A stretch of DNA of 64,000 nt from Dictyostelium discoideum (taxonomy: Eukaryota), in NCBI GenBank assembly GCA_000004695.1, contig CM000154.2, positions 4,768,001 to 4,832,000 on the forward strand. Direction: 5' to 3'. The notes beneath the pieces were generated by a model. That model worked only from the letters and a program-made list of their open reading frames with translations, had not been told where the DNA came from and searched no databases. Position numbers and translations under genes: made by a program. Each line of letters opens with the position of its first letter. Position 1 is the first letter of the stretch. This document shows, in pieces, positions 3,025 to 30,206 of this stretch.

Positions 3025-4318
3025 CTATAGGGGGTTATTATTATTATTATTTAATTTTTTAATAAAAATTTTAATTGTTAATTTATTATCAGTACTCAAC
3101 CAACCAAACTTTTTATCTTGGAATTCACCAAAGCCGACAGACCTGTGGAGGGTTCTGTTTGGTCCTTTAAATTTGATTGATTTCGACCTATCCAAATAAT
3201 TAACTATGGTAAAAATATATTTTAAATTAACCGATGGTTTTGTTTTAAATCCAATACAAGTTGGAGAAATTGAAAATGCACCTTTGGAAAAAAAAAAGTT
3301 GAAATTCTTCATTTTCAAAGTTAAATGGTTGAGAAAAAATTTTACCATTTGGTATGTTTGAAAAAATCCATTTGTTTTTGTATGTAGGAGAATAAGTGCT
3401 ATCCATTTTAGTGATAAATGAAGAAAGATTATTATTTTTTATTTGAAGTTCATCAATCTTTTTAACTAGCTCATCTTGGGTTTTATTTGATTCATATAAT
3501 GTTGATAATTTTGAAGATAGTTTTTCAATTAACAGACCTATGAAAAATTGATGATTTACATTCTCTTAATGGTTTAGTAACTCTGATCTTTCCATATAAA
3601 CTTTACAACCATATTCATAGTATTTACATGGTATTATTGAATAATTACAATCATACTCTGAATGATTTTATTTGATCTCTTTCAACCATAATTGAACAAC
3701 CTTGTGGACAGTCAATTGGAAATTTTGGGTATATATCATGATGATTCTCTAATTCCATTTGAATGATATCATCACAAGCACAATACTCACATTTAACTAA
3801 TTTGTAATCACATTTATTTTCATGTTCTTCTAATGAATTTAATCTTAAAACTATATCACATCCATCATGTGAACATTTTTCAAATTTAAATATACAATTT
3901 TCTATATGTATATCTAATTGATCTACATTTATTATTTCTCTACAACCATTCTCTTCATCTTTTACAAATATTCTTTTTTCATTTTCTTCATTTTCATATT
4001 CTTGATTGGCATCAATAAAATAATCAAAGTATGAGTAAATACAACAACATTCTTTTTTAGCAAAATTTTTTCAATTACTAAACATCTTGATAAATCTTTA
4101 AATGAATTCACTTCCGATCTACAAATCATACATTCTTGTTTTGTTTCTAATGATTTCTCCCAACATTCTCTACATGCATAATGACCAGATCTACATTGAT
4201 AAACTGATTTTTTATAAAAATATTCAAAACAAATTGGACATGAATATTTATTTTTCTTTTGTAATGATTCTTGATTTAATAAAACATTATTGATTGTAAA
4301 TTTTGAATTTATTGACAT
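3025..4318 (-). pseudogene. TRAF-like pseudogene with frameshifts and stops. Order on the minus strand: N-terminal RING ORF 3962..4318, degraded Zn-finger and coiled-coil region, then a MATH-like tail in ORF 3025..3348.
   Basis: The N-terminal 118 aa ORF is about 90% identical to the intact TRAF-like N-termini ([32 protein letters not shown]..). Downstream there are stops, e.g. near 3575..3600 and 3650..3700. This is the paralogous copy of 17040..17760. Confidence 0.7.
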
Positions 4319-4841
4319 TCTTTGTTATAAAATTATATATATATATTAAAATATATATATTAAAAAAAAAAATATAAAATAATAAAAAAAATTAAAAAAT
4401 AAATAAAATTGAAAAAAATAATAATAATAAAAAAAAAAGTGAGTGTGTTAATTTTTTACAAATAAATTTGCTATTATTTTTTTATTTAAAAAAAAAAAAA
4501 AAAAAGCTATTTTTATCACCAAAAAGAAAAAAAAAATTAAAATTTTAAGCGGTGGAAAAAAATAAAAAAAGTTATTTTTAGTTGTATCTTTTATTTCACA
4601 ATAAAAAATAATTAAAAAAAAAAACTAATAATTAATAAAATAAATAATTGGAAAAAAAAAAAAAAAAAAAAAAAAAAAAAAAAAAAAAAAATTAAAATTA
4701 AGTTCTAGTAACATTTAAATCAAATTTTTTAATAATCTAAAAATGTTTATAAAAGATAGAATGATTAAAAATTTATTTGGTATTTTAAAATTTTTTTTTT
4801 TTTTTTTTTTTTTTTCATTGTAAATGTTATTAGAATTTTAT

Positions 4842-28077: not shown

Positions 28078-28390
28078 TTTTTTTATTTATTTTTAAAATT
28101 AATATGAAACTTTTTATTGATAATTTTTAAGTTTTTGTTTAAAATTAAAATTAAAACAAACAGCAGGTGGATAAAAAAAAATAATTAAAAAATTAATAAT
28201 ATAACTAATTAATAAAAAAAAAAAAAAAAACTGAATTGGGGGTTCTATTTTTGTTAAACTTTTAATCTAACAAAACTCAAAAATATTGGTTAGAAAAAGC
28301 AAAACAAATTTAATTATTATTATCTTTGTCTTTGGTTATTATTTTTTTTTTATTTTACTATGTTGTGGAAAAAGGGTTATTTGTCCCATG

Positions 28391-30206
28391 CCAAAATTAA
28401 TATGGCTGCTGAAATTAATATGGTAATTTTGGCATGGGACTTATGTCTGCTAGAATTACCACATTAATTTCAGCAGCCATATTAATTTTGGCATGCACAG
28501 ACCAACTATTTTAGGCTGAAATTAATATGGCTGCCGAAATTAATATGGTAATTTTGGGCATAGAAAAATAAAAAAAAAACTCAAAGTCATTTAATTAATA
28601 ATCATCTCAAATATAAAAGAATTAAAAATAATAAAAAAAAACTCATGGGATTAATTACAGTAACAATACTGATGACAAGAATAATTATAAAATAAAAAAA
28701 AAAAAAAAATCTTTTTTTATCTTTTTATTTTTATTTCTTATTTATTTTCATGTGTTCAAAAAAAGTGGTGGTTTAAAACAATTTATTTAATTTTAAACTG
28801 TATGATTGTTTAAACAATTTCGAAATAAGTTTCTTTAAAGAAATTCTGTATTTCTTTTTTATTTTATTTTATTTCATTTCATTCTAATTTTTTTTTTTTT
28901 TTTTTTTTTATTTTTTTATTTTTTTTTTTTTTTTTGTATATTTAAGTTATTTATTATTATTATTATTATTATTATTATTATTATTATTATTATTATTATT
29001 ATTATTATTATTATTATTATTATTATTATTATTATTATTATTATTATTATTATTATTATATTATTGTTATTATTATTATTATTATTATTATTATTAATAT
29101 TACTATTATTTAATTGACCGAAGGGATATCTTTTACTTTTTTTTTATATATAATTGTTCGAAACTTTAAAAAATAAAATAAAAAAAAAAAAATTAAAAAA
29201 AAAAATATAAAAAAAAAATTAAAAAAATTAAAAAGTATTTTTTTTTTTTATTTTTTTATTTTTCCACCCGAAGATGTCGCTTTTTTGGAATTTAAAGATG
29301 TTGAATTCAATCAAAGTGATGAATTTGGTGTATTATTTAACGAAGTTACTATTGATAAAAATGATTTGAAGTACAAAGTAAATGTTGAATTTAGAGAGGC
29401 GGAGACAAGTAAAAATAAATTGCAAAGGGATATCGAAATAACCAAAAGAAAATCAACAGATGACCTAGTTGAAAAAGCAATCGAGCACTCTACCACCGAA
29501 GTTAGATCAACACATGAAGCTGCAACAACTTCCAATAATGGTGGAATCACAACTCAATCAAACAAAAACAAAACGGGTAAAAAAAGAGCTAATCAATTAC
29601 AATCTGATGCTGATTTTACCAAAAGATTTTCAAACGAAACTTCATCTGTTAGTAACAAAAGAGAAAGTAGAAGAGTCAATAATTAAAATAAAAAATTAAA
29701 AAAAAAAAATTATTTTAATTTTTTTTTTTTTTTTTTTTTTTTATTTTTAATTTTTTTTTTTATTTTTAATTTTTTTTTTTGTGAGCCGTGGACATAAATG
29801 AATAATAAAAAAATATATCAACTAAAAAAAAAAGAAATGAAAATAAATTATAAAATTAATAATAAAAATAAAAAGATAAAAATAAATAAAAGATATAAAT
29901 AAAATAATATGAAAATTTTTTTTTTTTTTTTTTTTANTATTATAATTATTATAATAAAAATAATAATAATAATAATTTTAGTACTAAAATTTTGTTTATA
30001 TTTGAGATGATTATTAATTAAATGACTTTGACTTTTTTTTTTTTTCTATGCCAAAATTACCATATTAATTTTGGCAGCTATGTACATGCTGAAATTAATA
30101 TGGCTGCTGAAATTAATACGGTAATTTTGGCAGACATAAGTCCCATGCCAAAATTAATATAGCTGCTGAAATTAATATGGTAATTTTGGCATGGGACAGT
30201 TATTTT
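28391..30206. mobile_element. Non-autonomous TIR DNA element of about 1.8 kb. The terminal about 170 bp inverted units are built of nested hairpins (ends TGTCCCATGCC...GGCATGGGACA), with an apparent 6 bp TSD of GTTATT.
   Basis: The left flank at 28232..28390 matches copy-1 14950..15105. The right flank at 30207..30355 matches copy-1 15106..15260. Copy 1 has the uninterrupted site aaaaagg|gttatt|ttgtgtttg. In copy 2 gttatt is present on both sides of the insertion. The reverse complement of the right terminus equals the left terminus. Confidence 0.8.
28961..29095. repeat. (ATT)n microsatellite of about 45 units, inside the TIR element.
   Basis: Near-perfect trinucleotide array with one interruption (tatattattgtt). 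Confidence 0.9.

Follow-up and report, generated by a model that had tools for sequence, protein, structure and literature searches.

Dictyostelium discoideum has about 40-45 polyketide synthase (PKS) genes, an unusually large family which reportedly includes clusters of two to five very similar genes with divergent promoters, as Zucko et al. are said to have described in 2007. Lineage-specific expansion of the PKS family in Dictyostelium has been documented (PMC3188802), and one member, pks39 (DDB_G0290943), has been placed at NC_007091.3:4,793,752, among genes numbered DDB_G02909xx (PMC10755179). Here we analyse a 64,000-nt stretch of chromosome 5 (CM000154.2, positions 4,768,001 to 4,832,000; 22% G+C), called the window below, in whose positions all coordinates are given. 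It contains two PKS genes, pksA and pksB, which are diverged paralogs carried on a real head-to-tail segmental duplication within an array of TRAF-like RING E3-ligase genes. The best explanation of the whole, and in our judgement a likely one, is tandem copying that is older than the mean divergence of the two copies, with later partial gene conversion between them. One of the two genes is very probably pks39, because the published position falls among the DDB_G02909xx TRAF genes of this window. Lineage-specific, clustered PKS expansion is already known, and the pair, which lies in an annotated reference genome, is an ordinary instance of it. The junction, the mosaic divergence, the putative conversion tracts and the transposon history may be undescribed, as they were not met in the literature on these genes that could be read.

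Comparison of the window with itself by BLAST gave a single strong off-diagonal, bearing out the collinear tandem duplication claimed in a first-pass annotation of this stretch. Positions 3337-15265 and 16999-30362 are collinear, on the same strand and head to tail. The blocks pair 3337-3512 with 16999-17174 (92.6% identity), 3734-6197 with 17174-19533, 6247-15104 with 19514-28382 (93% with gaps, E = 0) and 15098-15265 with 30199-30362 (94.7%), and further out 16310-16925 with 32840-33479 (88%) and 16926-17008 with 33553-33635 (97.6%). A global alignment of the copies has 494 mismatches in 11,248 ungapped sites (4.4%; 95.6% identical). Arrays of (ATT)n/(AAT)n at 6183-6279, 10095-10236 and 23276-23496, which encode poly-Asn in both PKS genes, and at 28850-29110 in a 1.8 kb transposon produce dense spurious off-diagonal matches in the same comparison. 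The features discussed are listed in Table 1.

Table 1. Positions in the window of the duplicated segment, its genes, breakpoints and insertions, and of neighbouring features
Feature	Position	Strand	Details
pksA	4842-14775	-	3133 aa; 7 exons: 14775-14457, 14359-14167, 14081-13957, 13878-13420, 13341-13147, 13048-5459, 5362-4842
pksB	18202-28077	-	3108 aa; 7 exons: 28077-27759, 27645-27453, 27367-27243, 27161-26703, 26624-26430, 26321-18807, 18722-18202
Copy 1 of duplicated segment	3347-17008		13,662 bp; TRAF pseudogene, pksA, upstream region, spacer; from self-BLAST, global alignment and junction alignment
Copy 2 in the window	17009-33635		TRAF pseudogene, pksB, upstream region, two transposon insertions, two 100-N gaps, right half of spacer
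Left breakpoint microhomology	3337-3346	+	AAATTTTACC; inside last (MATH-domain) exon of copy-1 TRAF gene
Copy 1/copy 2 junction	16999-17008	+	AAATTTTATC
Copy 2 end	33626-33635		AGATTTTATC
TRAF-like pseudogene, copy 1	3025-4318	-	Frameshifts near 4060 and 3667, in-frame stop near 3570 (tblastn against intact paralog; list of open reading frames)
TRAF-like pseudogene, copy 2	17042-17759	-	Two in-frame stops, 222-bp internal deletion, 3′ end lost at duplication breakpoint
Candidate gene-conversion region	12200-14862, paired with 25487-28164	-	KS-encoding exons, introns 1-5 and 87 bp upstream; ~1% diverged
1,816-bp element, copy 2 only	28383-30198		Terminal inverted repeats of ~370 bp of sub-repeats, starting GTCCCATGCC; target-site duplication GTTATTT (7-8 bp)
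Miniature palindromic element (190 bp), copy 1 only	15606-15799		Derived from the 1.8 kb element's terminal repeats; 97-98% identity with 28383-28530
TDD-4/5-like (Ginger2-type) transposon, right part	30680-32839	-	Integrase with H2C2 + rve; terminus TGTTGTAGGG; interrupted by 100-N gap 32478-32577
Copy-1 spacer	15506-17008		Right part matches 32840-33635 (88%, 97.6%); left part matches CM142511.1 locus L008 3200-2298 (~90%)
100-N gap	30580-30679		~39.6 kb in CM142511.1 (window 30579 = 4,893,377; window 30680 = 4,932,985)
Second 100-N gap	32478-32577		~300 bp in CM142511.1
Intact TRAF-like gene	538-1935	-	
Intact TRAF-like gene	34131-35917		
Intact TRAF-like gene	42464-43798	-	
Intact TRAF-like gene	46828-48254	-	
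TRAF-like fragments outside duplication	2388-2905, 37361-37778	-	One N-terminal, one C-terminal

The extent of the copies had to be redrawn. The first-pass annotation had described a 13.35 kb unit at 3025-16375, repeated at a constant offset of 13,350-13,370 bp and ending near 28560. Its landmarks are real (open reading frame (ORF) ends at 3962 and 17331, PKS stop codons at 4842 and 18202, large-exon ends at 5459 and 18807), but homology starts at 3337/3347, and indels, among them a 222-bp deletion in copy 2 and several changes in triplet-repeat length, shift the offset from 13,662 to 13,265 bp. Copy 2 runs on to 30362 around the 1.8 kb transposon, and its distal part resumes at 32840-33635, past two 100-N gaps. 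Nor is it a tidy second unit: an independent assembly (chromosome CM142511.1 of GCA_054883475.1) has about 39.6 kb in place of the gap at 30580-30679, and this hidden sequence separates the copy-2 PKS gene from its distal spacer.

The gene models of pksA and pksB were guided by homologs, use GT-AG introns and contain no internal stop. The seven-exon structure is shared, as first proposed, with exons 1-5 and 7 equal in length between the genes, and both coding sequences, of about 9.3 kb, are intact. Pfam searches assign both proteins the architecture KS-AT-DH-cMT-ER-KR-ACP-reductase. Matches to ketoacyl-synt, Ketoacyl-synt_C, Acyl_transf_1, ADH_N with ADH_zinc_N_2, KR and ACP_SdgA_C lie above the curated cut-off, and PKS_DH_N scores 24-25 bits, slightly below its 27-bit cut-off; a C-methyltransferase and a C-terminal NAD_binding_4 reductase are found in both proteins. 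A motif check recovered DTACSSS, HGTGT, NIGHTE, GHSLGE, EAGGGTG, HSAAGG, G(M/T)DSL, GSTGFLG and GYIQSK in each. Judged from these sequence features, pksA and pksB are predicted to be type I iterative highly reducing PKSs whose catalytic residues are intact.

The two proteins are 92.5% identical over ungapped positions (2847/3078) and 90.0% identical with gaps, rather than about 95% as had been estimated. The rate of synonymous substitution between the genes (Ks) is 0.093 overall and that of non-synonymous substitution (Ka) 0.0365, a Ka/Ks of 0.39, and both copies have remained intact under purifying selection. Differences in Asn-tract length had been noticed before; the tracts measure 34, 9 and 28 residues in pksA and 10, 8, 9 and 61 in pksB. 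The largest such difference lies in the linker between the DH and methyltransferase domains (pksA residues ~1357-1507, window ~10,700-10,250), which also has a Ka/Ks of about 1.1, with 33.8 non-synonymous and 6.2 synonymous differences. Constraint on the linker looks locally relaxed, the ratio being not significantly above 1.

Each copy has features that the other lacks. Private to one or the other are more than 15 indels of at least 9 bp, pseudogene lesions, Asn tracts and transposons, and the junction at 16999-17008 sits in continuous, gap-free sequence in which the copies abut directly. Together with the 494 substitutions, two intact PKS reading frames and the presence of the copy-2 transposon and its flank in CM142511.1 at 98.7% identity, these differences make it extremely improbable that copy 2 is an assembly artefact, produced by assembling one locus twice or by misjoining scaffolds at N gaps, even though copy 2 contains two such gaps, one of them hiding about 39.6 kb, and the tandem pair lies outside the stretch compared with the independent assembly. 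The earlier view of the copies as real paralogs therefore stands.

At the junction, 9 of the 10 bases match the left breakpoint, and the same number match the end of copy 2. The junction alignment revealed no homology between the breakpoint flanks beyond this A/T-rich 10-mer. A microhomology-mediated origin is favoured because of the 10-bp microhomology, the absence of long homology in the flanks and the resemblance of the junction TRAF copy to copy 1. One segment was copied in tandem, from within the last exon of a TRAF-like gene through a highly reducing PKS gene to its upstream spacer; the event would have been illegitimate recombination or a replication template switch, and not crossing-over between long repeats. 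Unequal crossing-over (non-allelic homologous recombination) between two TRAF-like paralogs flanking a single ancestral PKS gene might be expected in an array whose TRAF-like genes are 75-86% identical to one another, and the left breakpoint does fall inside a TRAF gene. The right breakpoint, at 33635, is however intergenic, about 500 bp past the 3′ end of the next TRAF gene, and the TRAF copy at the junction is not a hybrid, since it matches copy 1 at 92-97% and the downstream TRAF gene at 85%. As the breakpoint flanks also lack long homology, crossing-over between TRAF paralogs was rejected as the mechanism on the junction alignment, and we regard it as very unlikely. No tRNA genes were found within the window, and tRNA-targeted insertion was therefore not involved.

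Besides a complete PKS gene, each copy carries a TRAF-like pseudogene, in agreement with the first description. The pseudogenes align to proteins with RING, zf-TRAF and MATH domains, and the intact neighbours at 538-1935 and 42464-43798 carry RING, TRAF-type zinc finger and MATH domains by Pfam. Most of the C-terminal MATH piece of the copy-1 gene (3025-3348) lies outside the duplicated segment. The internal deletion already reported in the copy-2 pseudogene removed 222 bp, equivalent to copy-1 positions 3513-3734. None of the disabling lesions is common to the two copies, which suggests that the TRAF gene was probably intact when duplicated; both copies would then have decayed after the duplication.

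The surrounding array includes known genes. The intact gene at 46828-48254 is trafE (DDB_G0290971), whose published cloning primers match exactly at 48230-48254 and 46828-46848, and the gene at 42464-43798 is of the trafC/D type; the trafC/D 5′ primer matches at 43776-43798. Residues 1-519 of the AX4 protein P0136 are encoded at 100% identity at 35917-34361. Together with the identity to CM142511.1 given below, these matches place the window on chromosome 5, in the array of TRAF-like genes around trafD and trafE. The E3 ligase trafE has been studied in membrane damage and in defence against Mycobacterium marinum, so that the PKS pair lies within an immune-related TRAF array. In protein searches the intact TRAF ORF at 538-1935 (-), like the two PKS proteins (see below), had no match above 90% identity, whereas its neighbour P0136 (34131-35917) was present.

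Divergence between the copies is a mosaic. It amounts to 3.8% in the TRAF pseudogene and intergenic sequence, 3.9% at the PKS 3′ end, 7.1% in the PKS middle (6400-11299), 1.7% in the PKS 5′ part with 1.0% in its core (12200-14775), 3.4% in the 329 bp upstream of the PKS gene and 12% (10-12%) in the distal spacer. Introns 1 and 4 are identical between the copies and intron 5 has a single difference; intron 6 differs at 11 of 82 sites. Synonymous divergence (pS) is 0.029 over residues 1-850 and 0.131 over residues 1159-2790 (Fisher p = 1e-11). The candidate conversion region contains stretches of 716, 461 and 327 bp without a single difference, the longest of which (14147-14862) spans exon 1, intron 1 and the 87 bp upstream. 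The first two are longer than any identical tract in 5000 permutations, where the maximum was 331 bp. These tracts and the difference in pS bear out the first-pass remark that such a pair is open to gene conversion.

The duplication had also been called recent, which is only partly right. The 5′ 2.6 kb is about 1% diverged, the least homogenised neutral parts 10-13% (distal spacer 12%, intron 6 11/82, mid-gene pS 0.13). Mean identity thus misdates the duplication. The event would be older than the mean of 4.4% implies, at about 0.10-0.13 substitutions per neutral site. Later conversion between the copies would have wiped most differences from the KS-encoding 5′ 2.6 kb and fewer from the PKS 3′ end and the TRAF pseudogene, with a minor contribution of ectopic exchange.

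For comparison with other PKS genes we used three paralogs from a P450-linked PKS cluster 280 kb upstream, together with two alleles of another strain, out of a family of about 40. pksA and pksB (A and B below) are sisters in all three gene segments, with 100% bootstrap. The counts of informative sites, scored against a paralog (G) as A=B≠G, A=G≠B and B=G≠A, nevertheless change sharply along the gene, from 226/17/31 in the 5′ part to 184/156/137 in the middle. Over its middle third pksA and pksB are scarcely closer to each other than to the paralogs 280 kb off. The mid-gene differences are mostly private to one copy (246/303) and symmetric (127 versus 119), and therefore fit age better than imported sequence.

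These results bear on a different history, in which the duplication is young, as the divergence of about 1-4% in the flanks and gene ends would suggest, and the mid-gene divergence was imported by ectopic conversion from other PKS paralogs on chromosome 5. Over several mid-gene intervals pksA or pksB is indeed as close to the 4.6 Mb paralogs as to its partner, or closer (A-G2 0.959, A-B 0.910); 53 of the 303 mid-gene differences are shared with distant paralogs, and further donors are possible because only three of about 40 paralogs were sampled. We nevertheless consider this history improbable, given the symmetric private differences, the sister relationship of pksA and pksB in every segment and the divergence of 10-12% in a distal spacer that is not PKS sequence and has no PKS donors.

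Several points count against an old duplication with later conversion and are set out together here. When the 2537-aa exon and the KS region were used as protein queries, every match was a paralog of at most 88% identity, and nothing above 90% to pksA or pksB came up; the exact pksA sequence was missing from the protein collection searched, which is unexpected for an annotated reference locus. The comparison with CM142511.1 covers window positions 28733-30579 and 30680-64000 and stops 656 bp upstream of pksB, so that the tandem pair is beyond its reach. A/T microhomologies of 8-10 bp are not uncommon in this genome. Divergence may be inflated in the spacer alignments, where the sequence is 80% A+T, and the low 5′ divergence could in part reflect constraint on KS. 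Such constraint is insufficient by itself, because introns 1, 4 and 5 are near-identical too. Finally, the 53 of 303 mid-gene differences that are polymorphisms common with the paralogs 280 kb away indicate that some ectopic exchange took place as well.

A more speculative suggestion, which we consider rather improbable, is that conversion is domain-selective: the promoter-proximal, KS-encoding 5′ quarter would be held near-identical by repeated exchange, and the DH/cMT/ER/KR region would diverge and swap short patches with the paralogs 280 kb away. If so, the two synthases would have the same chain-building core and different tailoring, a natural form of combinatorial biosynthesis in a fast-turning TRAF array.

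Transposons have inserted separately into the two copies: copy 2 received an inverted-repeat element of 1.8 kb as well as a TDD-like transposon, and copy 1 a miniature inverted-repeat element. The 1.8 kb element, which the first-pass annotation had recognised as present in copy 2 only, has the ends GTCCCATGCC...GGCATGGGAC on both sides. Its empty site in copy 1, at about 15098-15104, reads GGGTTATTTTGTG, and the insertion is also found in CM142511.1 (element plus flank 98.7% identical). The terminal inverted repeats, the target-site duplication and the empty paralogous site are features of a cut-and-paste DNA transposon, to which class the element is assigned on its structure; its ORF gave no Pfam match. 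The miniature element was not found in the copy-2 spacer of CM142511.1.

The second insertion in copy 2 encodes an integrase. Its ends are inverted (TGTTGTAGGGAATTTTTTTTGAAATTTCGC...) and not direct, and a long terminal repeat retrotransposon was rejected for this reason. The sequence CAACAATG includes the target-site duplication, and copy 1 has the corresponding empty site near 16306-16313. The described TDD-4 and TDD-5 elements (Ginger2) are 3.8 kb long, with terminal inverted repeats of 260-297 bp and a 5-bp target-site duplication (PMC2836005). By these described features the copy-2 insertion resembles them in its TGTNR termini (TGTTG), its inverted repeats of about 265 bp, its H2C2 + rve integrase and its short target-site duplication. 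Unlike TDD-4 and TDD-5 it has termini that lie 24.8 kb apart in CM142511.1 and a target-site duplication of ambiguous length, 4-8 bp.

CM142511.1 is 99.4-99.9% identical to window positions 30680-49798 and 51764-64000. Within the 39.6 kb or so hidden in the first gap lie one gene for a ricin-B lectin and some seven genes or gene fragments of the TRAF-like family. Also there are the left end of the TDD-like element and the left half of the copy-2 spacer, the latter with about 90% identity to 15506-16319. Copy 2 thus holds a 16.4-kb block of host genes (lectin and TRAF) where copy 1 has 240 unmatched bases (15266-15505). Either copy 1 lost this block by deletion, or the block never belonged to the segment that was copied. 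A second version of window 36329-37532, partly inverted, also lies in the hidden region (L008 3333-4471). Window position 29937 is a single N.

Elsewhere in the window, a very long low-complexity ORF at 49186-54060 (-) has a strong AT skew and tandem repeats of 75-315 bp period at 50976-52555; the corresponding 1769-aa gene call in CM142511.1 gave no Pfam match. A xanthine dehydrogenase gene at 54758-59062 (+) corresponds to a 1358-aa call in CM142511.1 with Fer2, FAD_binding_5, Ald_Xan_dh_C and MoCoBD domains, and is followed downstream by a DAD-family gene and an Abhydrolase_3 gene (61775-62785). Nearer the duplication, 38123-39682 (-) encodes a 520-aa protein without a Pfam domain that is conserved exactly in CM142511.1, and an AAA_11 (helicase-like) gene adjoins it at 40230-41408 (-).

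The pair offers a clean worked example of how the Dictyostelium PKS family grows and is remodelled, with a probable microhomology-mediated origin, partial conversion, a hitch-hiking TRAF gene that decayed independently in each copy, and transposons that entered only one copy or the other. In practical terms, tracts of up to 716 identical bases mean that short reads, knock-out constructs, CRISPR guides and quantitative PCR primers placed in the 5′ third cannot separate pksA from pksB. Maps of the locus drawn from this assembly are incomplete, because some 40 kb of sequence, with about seven TRAF-like genes, is missing from it at the 100-N gap just upstream of pksB.

Among described systems, the TRAF-like RING E3 ligases of D. 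discoideum (trafD, trafE and more than 40 relatives; PMC10181826, PMC5758549) are those to which the duplicated TRAF copies align, but both copies are disabled. Fungal highly reducing PKSs with a C-terminal reductase share with pksA and pksB the order KS-AT-DH-cMT-ER-KR-ACP followed by NAD_binding_4, and the ACP of pksA and pksB matches a Pfam family named for the fungal SdgA. Dictyostelium PKSs nevertheless form a clade of their own. The PKS/P450 cluster about 280 kb upstream on chromosome 5 (DDB_G0290703 and neighbours; P0001, P0007) has the same domains and intron positions as pksA and pksB, and its proteins are 84-88% identical to theirs, with DNA identity of up to 96-97% over some mid-gene intervals. 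It adjoins cytochrome P450 genes, not TRAF genes, and forms a clade separate from pksA and pksB in all three segments. There is also a likeness to the clusters of near-identical type I iterative PKS genes of D. discoideum itself, which share with pksA and pksB both the organism and the chromosome region (pks39, PMC10755179).

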